Source: Lama glama (taxonomy: Eukaryota). From it: DNA of 64,000 bases. The translations under genes were made by a program, and so were the position numbers. A model generated the notes under the pieces. It had not been told where the DNA came from and made no database searches. It saw only the letters and a program-made list of their open reading frames with translations. Below, in pieces: positions 24,766-43,399 of this stretch. The stretch is taken from positions 28,956,001 to 29,020,000 of the forward strand of contig CM052816.1 in NCBI GenBank assembly GCA_028534125.1. The letters are read 5' to 3'. The stretch's first letter is position 1; each line of letters opens with the position of its first letter.

Positions 24766-26928
24766 AACAGGTCAAGGCTACAGTCTGAGTCACCAGAAAA
24801 AAAAAAGGGGGATAGATGGAGTGGTTAAAAGAGGCCCTTGGGGAAAGCACCATTCTTTGTTACTACCTTTAGATTCTCTCTCTCTTCATTTTCTCAAATT
24901 TCTAATCTTAAGTGACATACCCTTATGCATTTGTTTTGCTTCTCACCCATATTTATTTGGTTTCCTTATTCATTTATTCTACGCTTTTACGCCCTCTTAT
25001 CTCATGCATGTGGTCTATCAGAAAGGAATTCTTAAGGAAATTCACCATTTTTTCTCTGGTATACAGACATTTAAAGCAAAACTTTACTCATCATTAACCT
25101 CATGTTCACAACTTTCTCACGTTATACTAGAAAATACTGTTAAAGATGTGAAACAGGGTCAGATCATATTCCGTTACCTTTTATTTGAAATTTCTTCTAT
25201 GATCAGAATTGTTTTTGCTAGAAAAAATAACTGAATCAGTTAGTGAGGCTACTTGTCCCATGAATGTAACAGGTTCTTTTCTTCCTCCCTCTGGCTCAAA
25301 ATTGTTACAGGAGACTTCTACACACTGACAAAGCCTCTGCCACATCAGGTCAAGGTATAAGAAGCTATTTCTAATTATTTTATGTAACCAATTCAACAAA
25401 TTCATTAAACTGCATGCAGTGGGGAACAGAAGCATTGCTTTGGCCCTCTGAGCTCATGGGCCAGCAGAGCAGAAAAATTTGCTTTCATTACTATGTAACA
25501 CAAATTTATCCAAGTTTCATTCATCTATTGGTAATAAATGAAGTTCGTATTAACCATAACAACTAATTATTTCACTAATTCTTATCTGATTGCTGAAGCA
25601 TGATCTTCACCTCCATGCTGAGCCCCTACTAACATTTCTGGTGTCTGCCAGGTACTCTGTTCTGTCCCCTCCAGGTGGCACTGGTGTTCTGCAGTTTCTG
25701 ACAGGTACTGCAGCTCTCACACCTGCAACATGGTACCTTCAATGTTTGTTTATAGCCTGCTCTCCTCCTAGCACATTGTTATTGACCTGGCTTATTGTGC
25801 CTGGATCCATCTTTCCTCAGCATATGTCCTCTCCAAAGGGGCACCTAAGGCCCCATGTAAGCAGCTATGGGCTCTCAGGTCATCTACTCAGTTGACTAAA
25901 TCCAGCATAGATGGTCTCTGTTTATTTGGACCACAGCACCCCTGGGCCTTTTACAGCTGTCATCTGGAATTAAGAGAGGGCAGGGCAGAGTGATACTCAC
26001 CTTCCTCAGTTATTAATCTCATCAAAGGGGTTAAGGGAAAGCCTCCAAATTGGGTATAAATTTGTTCCCCAACTAAATGACTGGAATTTACTATGTCTCC
26101 TCTAGATCTCCTACCCACTTTACCAGAGGTCAAGAGGAAGTCTATGTTATGAGACTAAGACTGCATCTCAAGATGGCTTTAAATACAAACAACCACCTAC
26201 AGAATGGGAGAAAATATGTGCAAATGATGTGACTGACAAAGTCTTAATTTCCAGAATATATAAACAGCTCATACAATTTAATGACAAAAAAAATCAAACA
26301 ACCCAATCCAAAAATGGGCAGACGACCTAAACAAGCAATTCTCCAGTGAAAACATACAAATGGCCCCAGGCACATGAAAAAATGCTCAATACCGCTAATT
26401 ATCAGAAAAACACAAATTAAAACTATGAGTATCACCTCACACCAGTCAGAATGGCCATCATTCAAAAGTCCATGAATGATAAATGCTGGAGAGGCTGTGG
26501 AGAAAAGGGAACCCACCTAACTTTTGCTGGGAATGTAGTTTGGGGCAGCCATTATGGAAAACAGTATGGAGGGCCCTCAAAAAACTAAAAACAGACTTAC
26601 CACATGATTCAGCGATCTTACTTCTGGGTATATATCCGGAAGAAACTCTAATTCGAAAAGATAGGCCATGCGCGGGAGCCCCTGGCCCCATGGCGCGGCC
26701 TCAGGCGAAGACGTGTGAGGGTCCAGGTCCAGCCGTCGGCGGCGCCATAAGGTGGCCCTGCTCCCGCAGCCCTAAGGGACGGCGGCCGCGCGGCTCAGGA
26801 CGCCGGCGCAGAAAGGGCACCCAGCCCACACCTCCTCCAGGCCTCAGCCTCAGACTCCCAGGCCCAGGCGCCCACGACGCCTATGCTGACGGCCGCCTGG
26901 ACGCCGCCACCTCCACAAACTAGCGCCG

Positions 26929-27391
26929 GTGCCTGTCATGCCCGTCATGCCCGTCCCCGGTGTGCGCTCTTTCCACCACAGCCCACACACCACCTGTCGC
27001 ACGCAGCCTGCAGGCCGGCACGCGCCTCCCACTTGCCAGGCACCTGTACGTGTACGTGTACGTGTACGTGTACGTGTACGTGCACGTGCACGTGCACGTG
27101 CACGACGTCCGGGCGCGCTGGCCCTACGGCTTCATCCGCTTCCTGCTGTACTTCAGCGGCAGCCTCTTCACGGCTGCGCTGTGGAGCGCGCTGCCGGCAC
27201 TTTTCCGTCTGCAGCACCTGTGTGTGCCCGTCCTGCTGCCCTTGTAGCTCCAGCTGTCCTCTGCTGCTGCTGCTGCTGCTCGGCCTCCAGCGTGTGGGCT
27301 TCCGCCTCCTGAATGAGCTACTCATCTATGGCATCCAGGTGACCATGCTGCTGGTGGCAGGGCTGGGCTCATGGCCTTGGTGGACATGTGA
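26929..27391 (+). pseudogene. TMEM250: Disabled TMEM250 coding region
   Basis: At least three frameshifts, in-frame TAG at 27245-27247, hexamer expansion at 27047-27100, small deletion before the final GTG GAC ATG TGA (27380-27391). Confidence 0.88.
27047..27100. repeat. (TACGTG)6(CACGTG)3 hexamer array
   Basis: Read directly; appears as (YV)6(HV)3 in ORF 26960..27247. Confidence 0.97.
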
Positions 27392-29649
27392 GGGCGCTGG
27401 TCCTGGCCCCGGGGTGGATTATTGTGTCAAAGCACCTGTGTTCTGTGTGTGTGTTTTAGGTCCAGTGTCTCCTGGTCACCTGCTTATGGTTCTAGCCTGC
27501 ACTTTTCCAAGATATGCTGCCGGGTGAGGCCCATTGGTCCAGTATGCACTTCAAGGGCCTGTGTCCCTGTCCCCTCTCCAGGACATTGGCATCACCAGTG
27601 GTGTGGGAGGCCCCTAGGAGGGGTGCTGCCCAGGTGCAAGTCTGGAGGACGGTTCTGGACACACAGCCCAATTGGGTGCACCCCCAGCTCCTGCCCCAGT
27701 CTTAGGGAATGTCCACCAGCTGATGCACTGCATTGGCACAAAGCTGTTCACTCCTCCCTGGGCCACCCGAGTCCGGGCTGAAGCCACAGACCCTCCTCCA
27801 TCTGTCTGTGAGGCTTTCGGGTCCTGAGTCCCACGCTGGGCTTCAGTGTCACCTTGGTCTGCTTGGCAGGTTCCTAGATCAGAGGCTAGCCCAGGGGAGG
27901 GTTCAGGGCACACCTGTCTTCCTCCTGGGCAGGTCTGTTGAGAATGTCGGCCGGATGCTGTCATCTCTTCACATGTGGGTTTCTGGGGAGGCACCTCAGT
28001 TTCTTTCTGGCTTTGGGGTGACTTTCAGTCCCTTCCTGTGAGGGAATATCCAGGACTGAGTCATGTGTGTCGGGAGCAGAGTCAGAGGAGGCCCAAGTGC
28101 AGAGAAGCCCCTCTTGGAGTCAGGGGTGCTCCAGGGCTGCACCTCTGAGGGAGGGGCTCCACTGCCCCTCTGTTCCTGCCTCTGCAGCTATTAGAGCAGC
28201 TGGGAGTGAAAAGCAGAAATGAATGTGGGCCAGGAAGCAACCCTGGTCTGGGGGACTTTCAGTTGTAGAGAGAAGAACACACCAGGGGGCCAGCGTCTCA
28301 CCCAGACCGCTCACCATGTCCTTCTCTGTCAGAGGGGGACAGGCAGCCGCGGGCCTCACCAGCAGGTGAGAGACACTCTGAATGATTGTGCTGGGACAGC
28401 AGAGTAATGTATGGGACATAGGGCTCCATACTGGAGTGACAGGCTGATACTGCTTCACCCCAAGTTGTGTCCCCACATGCCCTGGGCATGGGCAGGGGTC
28501 CCTTCAACCTGTCTTGGCCAGGCAGCCCCATGGCTAGGGGAGCTGTTGGGACAGCTGTGTGCCACTGGACGGAAACCCAAATCAGAGAAAGAACGCAAAA
28601 AAATACTTGGCTATAAACCATGCTCTTTAACTTGTAGCCAGCTTGTGTCCGACGATGGTGCACTTGAGGTCCAGGGGACTGCTCAGAGGAGGAGGCCTGG
28701 GGTGGGTCTGTCTGAGTTGCCAGGAGCCAACCAGAGTAGACCCACTTCTTGGTACTGCAGAAAATCTTTTGCACTAAATCATGCTGTTTCCTAAAAGCTT
28801 TGTTTTGTGTTAATTGATTCATGTTACTCAGACCCTCCGAGGCGCCCCCCACCATGAGATGGACACGTGTCCACAGGGCTGCGGTGGCTGGAGGGGTCAT
28901 GGTTGTGCGGACACAAAGCTGCTCGGTGTCTTGAGTGCCTGTGAAATTCTTTATGAAACAAGCCACCTGCATTAAATTTATTTTTTTAACATGAAAAAAA
29001 AGAGGAGATGTATGCACCCCAAAGTTCATAGCAGCACTATATACAATATAGCCAAGACATGGAAGTAACCTAAGTGTCCATCAACGGATGACTGCATAAA
29101 GCAATTGTGGTATATTTATATTGGTGGTATATTTATACAATGGAATACTACTCAGCCATAAAAAGAATAAAATAATGCCATTTGCAGCAAGATGGATGGA
29201 CCTAGAGATTGTTATTCTAAGTAAAGTAAACCAGAAAGAGAAAGAAAAATACCATATGATAAAACTCTTATGTGGAATCTAAAAAAATAAAATAAAATAA
29301 AAAATGGACAGTATGAACTCACTTAAAAATATAAACAGACTTGCATAGTAAACAATCTTGTGGCTACCAGGGAAAGGGGGTGGGAAGGGATAAATTTGGG
29401 GGTTTGAGATTTACAAATGTTGGCCACTATATATAAAAATAGATTTTTTTAAAAAGTTTCTTCTGTATAGCACAGGGAACTGTGTTCAATATCTTGTAAT
29501 AAACTTTAATGAAAAAATATTAAAATGAATTAATGTATGTATATGCATTACTGTGACACTGTGCTGTACACCAGAAGCTGATATATTATAACTGACTGTA
29601 CTTCAATTTAAAAAAATTTAAGCAGAAAAAATATGTATATCATCTTGAC

Positions 29650-33460: not shown

Positions 33461-34579
33461 GGTCAGAAGAGGTAAGATGGCGGAGTAGAAGGACGCTTGT
33501 AAGTCACCCTCTCCCACAAATACACCAAGATGCACATCTACAGACTCACTCAGCCAACCAGAGCACCTGCGGAACTCCGACAGATCATCGCCCTCTTCAA
33601 AAGATAAAGACGCCGAAAATCTGGTAGGAGAAAAGGAAAAAAGAAAGAACAAAAGGCAAAGTAGCGCGCGGGACGGGTCCCGCGGGGAGGGAGCGGCAAA
33701 GGAGGACTGGCGCTCGCTCGCTGGGTCTCCCCTCTCCAACTGAGAGGCCAGCGGGACGGAGGGGGAGCCTCCGAGGTTCGGATCTGTACAGAGCAGCCCT
33801 TGTCTGACAGAACTAAGTTAAATGGGCACAGAGCGTCCCCCCGACACCCAGCCTGAGACGTGGGCCGGCAGGGGCGGGCAGGGCCAGGCTGCACAAGCTG
33901 GGCAGAGGACGGGGGCGGCTGCACGGAGGCAGCCCCGGGGGACTGCAAGGGGCTGGGCGCCGTGGCTGTGGGTGTACAGGACAGAACAACCTGGGCCCTC
34001 CATAAAACAGCAAGGTTGATGTGCTCTTGGGGGAAGGGTGCATACCCCCATCTCTGAAAAACCCTTGGAAACTTTTCAGGGGAAGAGAGGCGGGGCCCAG
34101 GCACAGCCGCCATATTCTCCGGTGCTGAGCACCCAGGCGGGGGCAGGGGCGAAACCTGCATCCGCACAGAAGGGCTCAGCAGCCTCAAGGGCCAGACTGA
34201 GACGGGCCTACAGCCCGGGGCAGGTGGGGTCCTTCCATCCTGGTCCCTCAGAGAACTTGCTCCACAAAGACAAACAAGGAGCTGGGTCTTGGCTCGGAGC
34301 AGCGACGAGGCTGCCCCTCCGTCTTCCCCGAGCCCACCCGCGGAGCGCGGCCAGGGCGGAGCGCGCAGCTGCACAGAGCAGCAGAGCTACCAGCAGCGCA
34401 GGCAGAGGGAGAGCGGCACCCCCCCCCACCGCCTGTCAGGCAGGAACACAGCCCCTGACCGAGGTGCTGGGAGGGGGCACGACCCGCCCTCCTGCCTGGC
34501 CAGTCTGCAACATCTGACTACAGCATCCGGAGGGGCAGTGACCCGCCCACCCGCAGCAGAGGAGAGCTGCATCTGACCC
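33461..34579 (+). promoter_or_regulatory. L1 5' UTR internal promoter / CpG island with YY1 motif
   Basis: AAGATGGCGG YY1 consensus about 13 bp from the element start; dense undecayed CpGs. Confidence 0.75.
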
Positions 34580-35079
34580 NNNNNNNNNNNNNNNNNNNNN
34601 NNNNNNNNNNNNNNNNNNNNNNNNNNNNNNNNNNNNNNNNNNNNNNNNNNNNNNNNNNNNNNNNNNNNNNNNNNNNNNNNNNNNNNNNNNNNNNNNNNNN
34701 NNNNNNNNNNNNNNNNNNNNNNNNNNNNNNNNNNNNNNNNNNNNNNNNNNNNNNNNNNNNNNNNNNNNNNNNNNNNNNNNNNNNNNNNNNNNNNNNNNNN
34801 NNNNNNNNNNNNNNNNNNNNNNNNNNNNNNNNNNNNNNNNNNNNNNNNNNNNNNNNNNNNNNNNNNNNNNNNNNNNNNNNNNNNNNNNNNNNNNNNNNNN
34901 NNNNNNNNNNNNNNNNNNNNNNNNNNNNNNNNNNNNNNNNNNNNNNNNNNNNNNNNNNNNNNNNNNNNNNNNNNNNNNNNNNNNNNNNNNNNNNNNNNNN
35001 NNNNNNNNNNNNNNNNNNNNNNNNNNNNNNNNNNNNNNNNNNNNNNNNNNNNNNNNNNNNNNNNNNNNNNNNNNNNNNN
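34580..35079. other. Assembly gap (500 N)
   Basis: Read directly. Confidence 1.
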
Positions 35080-40288: not shown

Positions 40289-43200
40289 TACCTCAAGAAA
40301 CAAGAAAAATGTCAAATAAGCAACCTAACCTTAAACCTAAAGGAAGTAGAGAAGAACAAACAAAATCCAACATTAGTTGTAGGAAAGAAATCATAAAGAT
40401 CAGAGCAGAAATAAATAAAATAGAGACAAAAAATAGAAAAGATCAATGAAACCAAAAGCTGGTGATTTGAAAAGATAAACAAAATTGATAAACCTTTAGC
40501 CAGACTCATAAAGAAAAAAAGGGAGAGGGTCCAAATTAATAAAATCAGAAATGAAAAAGGAGAAGTTACAATATGCCAATAAAATGGACAACCAAGAAAC
40601 AATGGAGAAATTCTTAGAAATATACAATCTCACAAAACTGAACAAGGAATATTTAGAAAACAAAAATAGGCTAATTCCAGTAATGAAGTTGAATCAGTAA
40701 TTTTAAAACTCCCAACAAGCACAAATCCAGAGCCAGATGGCTGCACAGGTGAATTCTACCAAACACTTAGAGAAGAGTTAACACCCATCTTTCTCAAACT
40801 ATTCCAAAAAATTGCAGGGGAAGGAACACTTCTGAAATCATTCTGTAAAGCCAGTATCACCCTGATACTAAAACCAGACAAAGATATCACAAAAAAAGAA
40901 AATTATAGGCAACTATTATTGAAGAACATAGATGCAAAAGTCCTCAACAAAATACTAGCAAACTGAATCTAACAACACATTAAAAGAATAATCAAGTGGC
41001 ATTTATCCCAAGGATGCAAAGACTTTTCAATACCCACAAATCAATCAGTATGTTACATCACATTGACAAACTGAAGAATAAAAATCATTTGATAGATGCA
41101 GAAAAAGCTTTTGACAAAATTCAGCATCCATTTATGATAAAAACTCTCCAGAAAGCAGGCATAGAGGGAACATACCCCAACATAATAAAGGCCATATATG
41201 ACAAACCCACAGTTAACATCATACTCAACGGTGAAAAGCTGAAAGCATTTTCTCTAAGATCAGACACAAGATAAAAGATTTCCACTTTTATTGAACATAG
41301 TATTGAAGGTCCTAGCCACAATAATCAGAGTAGAAAAAGGAATAAAAGGTCCCTGAATTGGAAGGGAAGAAGTAAAATTGTCATTGTATGCAGATGACAT
41401 GATACTATATATAGAAAACTGTAAAGACTCTACACAAAAATTATTAGAACTGATAAACAAATTCAGCAAGATAGCAGGATAAAAGACTAACATGAAGAAA
41501 TCTGTTGCATTTCTTTACACTAACAATGAAATATCAAAAATGGAAAGTAAAGGAAAAAAAGCCCTTTTAAAAATCACATCCAAACAATAAAATATTTAGT
41601 AAGAAACCCAAAGAAAAGTAGGTGAAAGGCTTATATGCTGAGAACTATGTAACACTGATAAAGGAAACTGAAGATAATTTAAAGAAATGGAAAGCTATCC
41701 CATACTCTTGGATTGGAAGAATTCATATTGTTAAAATGGCCACACTACCCAAAGCAATCTACAGATTTGATACAATCCCTATCAAATTACCCGGGACATT
41801 TTTTCACAGAACTAGGACAAGTAATCCTCAAATTTATATGGAATCATAAAAGACACAGAATTGCTAAAGCAATCCTGAGGGAAAAGAACAAAGCTAAAGA
41901 TATAACCCTCCCAGATTTCAGACAATACTACAGAGCTCCAGTAATAAAAACAGCATGGTATTAGCACAAAAAGACATATAGATCAATGGATCAGAATAGA
42001 GAGCCCAGAAATAAATCCACACACCTATGGTCAATTAATCTTCAGCAAAGGAGGCAACAATGTACAATGTGAAAATGTCTCTTCAGCAAGTGGTGTTGGG
42101 AAAGCTGGACAGCCACATGCAAATTAATGAAGTAAGAACACTCCCTCACACCATACACAGAAATAAACTCAAAATGACTTAATGACTTAAATATAAGACA
42201 TGACACCATACAATTCCTAGAAGAAAACATAGGCAAAATATTTTCTAATGTAAATCATAGCAATGTTTTCTTAGGTCAGTCTCCCAAAGTAAATAAAAGC
42301 AAAAACAGACAAATAGGACCTAATCAAATGTAAGCTCCTGCAAAGCAAAGAAAACCATAAACAAAACAAAAAGACAACCTACAGGCTGGGAGAAAGTATT
42401 TGCCAATGATGTAACTGACAAGGGCTGAATTTCCAAAATACACAAATAGTTCATATAACTTAGTAACAAAAAAACCAACCTAATTAAAAAATGGGCAGAA
42501 GACGTAAATAGACATTTCTCCAAAGAAGATATACAGATGATCAACAGGCACACGAAAAGATGCTCAATGTCATTATTAGAACAATGTAAATCAAAACTAC
42601 AATGAGTTATGACCACACACCAGTCAGAATGGCTGTCATTAAAAAGTCTACAAATACCAAACACTGGAGAAGATGAGGAGAAAAAGGAACCCTCCTATAC
42701 TGTTGGTGGGAATGTAAGCTGATGCACTCACTATGGAAAACAGTATGTTTCCTTAAAAAACTTAAAATAGAGTTACCTTATGATCCAGCAATACCATTCC
42801 TGGGCATATATCCAGAGAAAACTCTAATCTGAAAAGATGCACGCATCTCAATGTTCACAGCAGCAATATTTACAGTAGCTAAGAAATGGAAGCAACCTAA
42901 ATGTCCATCAACAGATGAATGGATAAAGATGATGTGGTATATTTACATAAAGAAATATTACTCAGCCATAAAAAATAATTCCTTTTGTAGCAACATGGAT
43001 GTACCTGGAGATTATCATACTAAGTAAAATAAATCAGAGAAAGACAAATATACGATATAACTTATACATGGAATCTAAAATATGATACAAATGAACTTTA
43101 CAGAAACAGACTCCACATAGAAAACAAACTTATGGTTACCAAAGGGGAAAGTTTGGGAGTGGGTATAAATTAGGTGTTTGGGATTAGCAGATTCAAACTA

Positions 43201-43399
43201 CTATGAATAAAATAGATAAGCAAGTTTATATTATAAACACAGGGAACTGTATTCAATATTTTGTGATAAACTATGATGGAAAAGAATATGAAAAAGAATA
43301 TATATATTCTGAATCACTTTGCTGTACATCAGAAACTAAAGACAACATTGTAAATCAACTATACTTCAATTTTAAAAAAAAAAGAAGAAAAAGAAAAAA
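40289..43399 (+). mobile_element. 5'-truncated L1 (~3.1 kb, disrupted ORF2 RT region and 3' UTR)
   Basis: ORF fragments '[19 protein letters not shown]', '[20 protein letters not shown]', '[19 protein letters not shown]'; 'ttgtatgcagatgacatg' (YADD); A-rich tail 43374-43399. Confidence 0.96.

Follow-up and report, generated by a model that had tools for sequence, protein, structure and literature searches.

Probable origin of a camelid compound microsatellite of HIF and E-box words from the codons of a dead TMEM250 retrocopy

Introduction

How does a tight row of binding-site words for HIF and E-box proteins come to stand inside a dead gene copy, and does it act there as an enhancer? The question is raised by a 66-base array within the window, the whole 64,000-nucleotide stretch of DNA that was analysed. 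The original prediction held that a D-V-Y-type seed in a TMEM250 pseudogene could have expanded by slippage into a length-tunable enhancer whose CpGs had escaped decay. Of this overall interpretation, the seed origin, the change in length and the identities of the motifs have found support, while the reading of CpG integrity as function and the enhancer role have not. Neutrality is the default and most likely reading: the array is very probably a compound microsatellite that evolves neutrally and arose from the D-V-Y-V codons of a dead TMEM250 copy.

Sequence of the array

The sequence re-read in the window is the one first described, CACCTG (TACGTG)6 (CACGTG)3 CACGAC at 27041-27106, with the TACGTG block at 27047-27082, the CACGTG block at 27083-27100 and ten CpGs spaced 6 bases apart from 27049 to 27103. 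Tandem Repeats Finder reports a period of 6 and 10.0 copies with 98% matches, no indels and a score of 92; units of 1-6 bases in head-to-tail copies define a short tandem repeat (STR), and such units are present here. The alternating purine-pyrimidine run is likewise as predicted, extending without a break over 60 bases (27045-27104). So are the HIF and E-box words, since RCGTG, the core of the HIF response element (HRE), occurs nine times on the plus strand and three times on the minus strand.

The array is not a chance product of random sequence. ACGTG occurs in it nine times, and the highest count in simulations of the surrounding island was three per 66 bases (7 of 5000), under a first-order Markov null that leaves out slippage, a process that readily yields such runs. 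The predicted hairpin is modest, with a folding energy of -29.6 kcal/mol over 91 nt and a z-score of -2.02; six of 200 shuffles were equally stable.

A TMEM250 retrocopy within an L1 element

The host was identified correctly as a TMEM250 pseudogene: Pfam PF17685 scored above its cut-off in two different frames, out of four tested. Intact TMEM250 proteins together with their upstream extensions match 26747-27626 by tblastn. Since the matches to extensions from other mammals begin as far 5' as 26747, the 5' untranslated region is part of the retrocopy. A frameshift-aware alignment to P0101, an intact mammalian TMEM250 of 139 residues, runs from the ATG at 26938 to codon 139 at 27386 and finds the same residue in 101 of 133 matched codons. 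The frame is disabled by frameshifts at four sites (near codons 21, 37-44, 96 and 131-133) and by a premature TAG at 27245-27247, which places a stop at codon 91. Downstream of the array, slippage affected this broken frame once more, at a CTG run.

Homology to an mRNA including its untranslated regions, a disabled frame and a polyadenylation signal followed by an A-tail (8 A at 28994-29001) are the marks of a processed pseudogene, and by these features the copy appears to be one made by L1 activity. It also seems to have landed in the middle of a single repeat, which we take to be an L1 from its translated peptide. Aligned to a reference copy elsewhere in the window, the left half reaches 42838 and the right half sets in at 42835, an exact 4-base overlap. 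No exact repeat longer than 7 bases was found at the flanks of the retrocopy; the 8-base candidate for a target-site duplication matches at six of eight positions (Table 1).

Table 1. Features of the retrocopy, its array and its insertion site (window coordinates)
Feature	Position	Strand	Evidence or remark
Host L1, 3' end of ORF2, left half	26182..26662	+	76% identical to L1 copy at 42363-42838
Probable degenerate target-site duplication, left copy GAAAAGAT	26655..26662	+	6/8 bases match right copy
TMEM250 (C9orf69) processed pseudogene: 5'UTR, broken CDS, 3'UTR, short A-tail	26663..29001	+	Pfam TM250; tblastn; paralogous DNA/RNA contigs over 3' part
CpG-island-like 5' part of retrocopy	26664..27260	+	GC 0.71, CpG o/e 0.78 without array; 3'UTR o/e 0.19
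Remnant of 139-codon TMEM250 reading frame	26938..27391	+	Frameshift-aware alignment to P0101
Compound hexanucleotide microsatellite	27041..27106	+	Stands in place of parent codons K37-Y44; net +38 nt, frameshift
(CTG) run from parent's leucine stretch, 4-nt insertion	27261..27280	+	Tandem Repeats Finder; alignment to P0101
ATTAAA polyadenylation signal	28971..28976	+	17 bases 5' of A-tail
Probable target-site duplication, right copy GAGGAGAT	29002..29009	+	Directly 3' of 8 A at 28994-29001
Host L1, right half	29006..29630	+	Matches 42835-43392

Origin of the array

The parental peptide given in the original prediction, KYNNFDVY, was confirmed in other mammals. TKYNNFDVY is present in 87 of 176 retrieved proteins, and another 86 (mostly fish, bird or reptile forms, or partial sequences) fall outside the search pattern, none of them with a YV/HV run. 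A run of three or more such dipeptides was found in two of the 176, both of them camel copies of the locus studied here, which argues that the array arose from a seed inside the pseudogene. The expansion was not a plain insertion as first supposed: 62 nt of array occupy the place of the parent's codons K37-Y44 (24 nt), which means a loss of parental bases and a shifted frame as well. Because 89 of the 101 unchanged codons end in G or C at the third position (window against P0101), the D-V-Y-V seed most likely read GAC GTG TAC GTC.

We propose a route in which these parental codons, two imperfect hexamers sharing ACGT if spelled as above, served as a proto-repeat that selection on the protein would have restrained in the parent gene. 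After the copy had died, the K-Y-N-N-F codons would have been lost in a short deletion beside the seed, and replication slippage would then have added 6-base units, possibly aided by fold-back of the self-complementary units. A single T/C change may have founded the CACGTG block beside the TACGTG one, after which the two could change length independently. Several equally short, indistinguishable routes would lead from seed to array. The HRE and E-box words would be a by-product of the seed; naked, unmethylated array DNA would probably be bound by bHLH proteins, which need not imply any effect in the animal.

Microsatellites are reported to arise from proto-repeats by substitution, indel and slippage (PMC3812793). 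The cases described there resemble the array in being born after an insertion and in varying in length among related species; they differ in that they concern L1 and Alu elements and mostly A-rich repeats, whereas here the unit contains a CpG and the seed would be former coding sequence within a processed pseudogene.

Could the array instead have been inherited through the RNA that was copied, its source being the camelid parent gene or a TMEM250 copy in between? We regard this as very improbable, since the net frameshift of 62 nt for 24 is impossible in an intact parent and whales, a bovid, horse, bats and carnivores all carry KYNNFDVY. What speaks for it is that no camelid parent TMEM250 was found among the matches listed (cluster P0029 has 100 members, of which 40 were read and 15 listed). 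In addition, at least two other sequences in the DNA runs are TMEM250-like, with an identity of about 86-89% (window 27446-28955; X10 records 5 and 6, over 28112-28244, are an example), and for this reason a sister copy, either a second retrocopy or a duplicate besides the parent, may exist. Birth within the dead copy remains the reading we prefer.

Orthologous arrays in Old World camels

A search with the YV/HV frame of the array returned two proteins, EPY87473.1 (P0001, Camelus ferus) and KAB1280873.1 (P0002, C. dromedarius). Both have odd N-termini that match the upstream flank of the window, P0001 at 15348 and 25677 and P0002 at 20856, and because these spurious first exons come from the flank, both gene models represent the orthologous locus. 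Between H-L and H-D, the two camel proteins read (YV)3(HV)1 and (YV)3(HV)2, and the window (YV)6(HV)3. The predicted difference in length between camelids is therefore borne out at one orthologous locus, with 3+1 and 3+2 units in the camels versus 6+3 in the window (totals of 4, 5 and 9, both blocks varying), where the camel counts are read from two predicted proteins rather than DNA and the nine units of the window from one sequence. By these protein counts, the camel alleles have the same frame offset as the window.

Old World camels and the lineage of the window separated about 16-17 million years ago. Since both camel orthologues carry a shorter version of the array, it predates that split. 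The comparison indicates that the compound microsatellite in this dead retrocopy occurs across camelids and varies in length. It is a neat example of a repeat born from coding sequence once that sequence was released, and it can serve as a camelid marker. It also carries a warning for annotation. KAB1280873.1 (named 'Transmembrane protein 250') and EPY87473.1 share locus and array with the window and are annotated as protein, but in them flank sequence is spliced onto one pseudogene frame and the arrays are shorter; both are spurious gene models and not real TMEM250 proteins.

The same two camel proteins bear on whether the array is an assembly artefact, an outcome that the original prediction itself had named as fatal to it. 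Two independent camel assemblies carry the same compound structure at the orthologous locus, and 83-97% of the retrocopy's sampled words are present in 16 DNA runs under five organism labels (one run being marked as a possible source). Contigs from four of the 24 listed runs were compared with the locus (X2, X5, X10 and X17, of which X17 is RNA and the other three DNA), and the three DNA runs confirm it from 27128 onward with 0-3 differences per contig, the repeat itself lying outside this comparison. All four runs are almost without contig cover over 26670-27110, the repeat and what lies to its left, and the exact unit number comes from the assembly alone, which is the one point in favour of an artefact; we hold that explanation to be barely credible.

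A DNA scan of metagenome contigs for the left junction of the array gave 15 loci, none with the retrocopy flanks, and a scan of the same kind of contigs with the P0001 protein gave 593 pattern matches, none of which was confirmed. A literature search, with camelid STR and selection-scan tables in supplements falling outside it, found nothing on this locus, and the accessible part of PMC7331169 does not mention it.

CpG content and germ-line methylation

The undecayed CpGs had been put forward as a sign of function. For ten independent CpGs, the probability of survival is about 0.03-0.006 at loss rates of 0.3-0.4 (0.17-0.08 for five). Because survival of all ten would be so improbable, recopying or protection must be invoked, and the low odds count against the neutral reading unless the units are recopied. 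The units are recopied, since the camel alleles show about half of them gained or lost since the split. Intact CpGs are weak functional evidence, then, because slippage recopies the units and the whole island is CpG-rich; their survival is what slippage would be expected to produce in an island with an observed/expected ratio of 0.78 outside the array. Moreover, CpG survival in the array informs on the germ line only.

CpG decay has nonetheless taken place in the dead frame, and the loss rates above reflect it: A or T is found at 8 of 21 third positions in CpG context versus 4 of 70 others (Fisher p 0.0006), a comparison in which the parent's synonymous state is not seen. Among 28 amino-acid-changing differences from a non-camelid proxy parent in the TMEM250 remnant (26938-27388), 10 are G/C-to-C/G transversions and 5 are CpG transitions. 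This transversion-rich, CpG-transition-poor pattern may hint at an island partly unmethylated in the germ line. As a check on GC-biased gene conversion, weak-to-strong changes number 8 on 109 A/T sites versus 10 strong-to-weak changes on 143 G/C sites, against the same kind of proxy. A reading of directional CpG decay from the contig change table was dropped, the table being simply transition-rich (A>G about 30, T>C about 31, C>T about 30, G>A about 15).

Processed pseudogenes that bring new CpG islands are known from PMC4509998, in which a retrotransposed island in mouse shows low methylation in male germ cells and high methylation in somatic tissue. The retrocopy resembles these cases in its CpG-rich 5' end, poly(A) signal, A-tail and probable target-site duplication, and is unlike them in its expanded hexamer run and in that its island status comes from sequence only. 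Methylation is reported to lower HIF affinity 15-fold (PMC7384226).

Does the array act as an enhancer?

The enhancer proposal can be stated as follows. A retrocopy island would have supplied the context and a slipped D-V-Y-V the sites; the row would then have doubled in the South American lineage (9 versus 4-5 units), so that HIF or USF/MAX would occupy it more and a distant gene, or a transcript of the germ line, would be tuned. The array would thereby be a working, length-tunable HIF/bHLH enhancer or promoter element, made from nothing in an orphan CpG island and lengthened in South American camelids. Twelve RCGTG cores over both strands in 66 bases, the CpG ratio of the island and a window allele about twice the length of the two camel alleles are in keeping with it. 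We nevertheless judge the proposal very improbable, for reasons of spacing, specificity, methylation and context.

In EPO-type enhancers, a TACGTG core is followed by a CAC element (HAS), as in the array, and PMC12154756 reports that the HIF dimer-of-heterodimers needs a spacer of 8 bp between HRE and HAS. Because the period of the array is 6 bp, this spacing is impossible there: a CAC lying 8 bp 3' of an HRE was not found within it, and its RCGTG-to-CAC spacers are 0, 6 or 12 bp. The same source also allows HRE-only sites bound by one heterodimer, and single-heterodimer HIF binding to the array is possible in principle. The absence of the cooperative spacing, together with an island whose CpG ratio already explains the CpGs, weighs against the hypoxia enhancer of the original prediction.

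Motif identity is a poor guide as well. Most RCGTG motifs are reported to be non-functional (PMC3454324). The RCGTG core is spelled by 8 of 350 hexamer repeat classes, and unrelated purine-pyrimidine repeats (L012, L014) likewise contain TACGTG units; selection is therefore not required to account for the motif match. The inserted CpG island described in PMC4509998 is methylated in mouse somatic tissue. Finally, the 64 kb offer no evident target. Apart from the pseudogene and GC-rich stretches derived from repeats, a crude codon-bias scan (best 75 frames) gave no candidate for a coding exon; short or AT-rich exons could be missed by it, and distal targets would lie beyond the window.

The repeat at TYMS has a unit of 28 bp. 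This E-box VNTR with USF1 sites acts on TYMS (PMC7712088), and STRs can serve MAX and Pho4 as direct binding sites and adjust their affinity (10.1101/2022.05.24.493321); they lend the enhancer proposal its closest precedents. As in the array, repeat number sets the number of E-box-type sites. The TYMS repeat differs in lying upstream of an expressed gene, with measured effects (PMC7712088). Its unit is also much longer, so that its sites do not abut. Were the array unmethylated and bound, the alleles of 4, 5 and 9 units found in nature would directly test whether abutting HIF/E-box sites scale with copy number, and would do so in animals adapted to altitude and desert.

Adaptation to hypoxia or aridity had also been suggested. 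Because lowland Old World camels carry the array too, its birth was not an Andean adaptation; only the longer allele, seen in one sequence, could be one.

Reading frames, transcription and other features of the window

Two open frames cross the array on the plus strand. In a frame of 124 codons that starts at the parental ATG (26938-27312), the array comes out as (VR)n(AR)n, a dipeptide run rich in arginine. A second frame, of 214 codons and opened by an upstream ATG (26883-27527), gives (TC)n at the array and continues into the C-terminal segment of TMEM250. Steps of six bases preserve both frames, and the array might conceivably matter as RNA or peptide if the retrocopy were transcribed. The RNA run X17 does contain low-depth contigs (4.3-7.2) that are 93-96% identical to 27479-28792, which could be another camelid's orthologous retrocopy. 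None of the seven X17 contigs reaches the 95% class, though, and none extends to the array; the parent-like X17 contigs, mostly about 85% identical, stand at a depth of 45-68, and long open frames are expected at 70% GC. Because this run holds 780 million letters of contigs, the low-depth pieces can be explained as DNA or background transcription. A role as RNA or peptide is extremely improbable on this evidence, and a neutral microsatellite remains the preferred reading.

Two other regions of the window stood out in passing. A second CpG-rich block at 33470-34579, with an observed/expected ratio of 0.54, resembles an L1 5'UTR and is cut off by a gap of 500 N (34580-35079). The segment 53500-55100 is slightly richer in CpG, and its translation has LTR-like wording.
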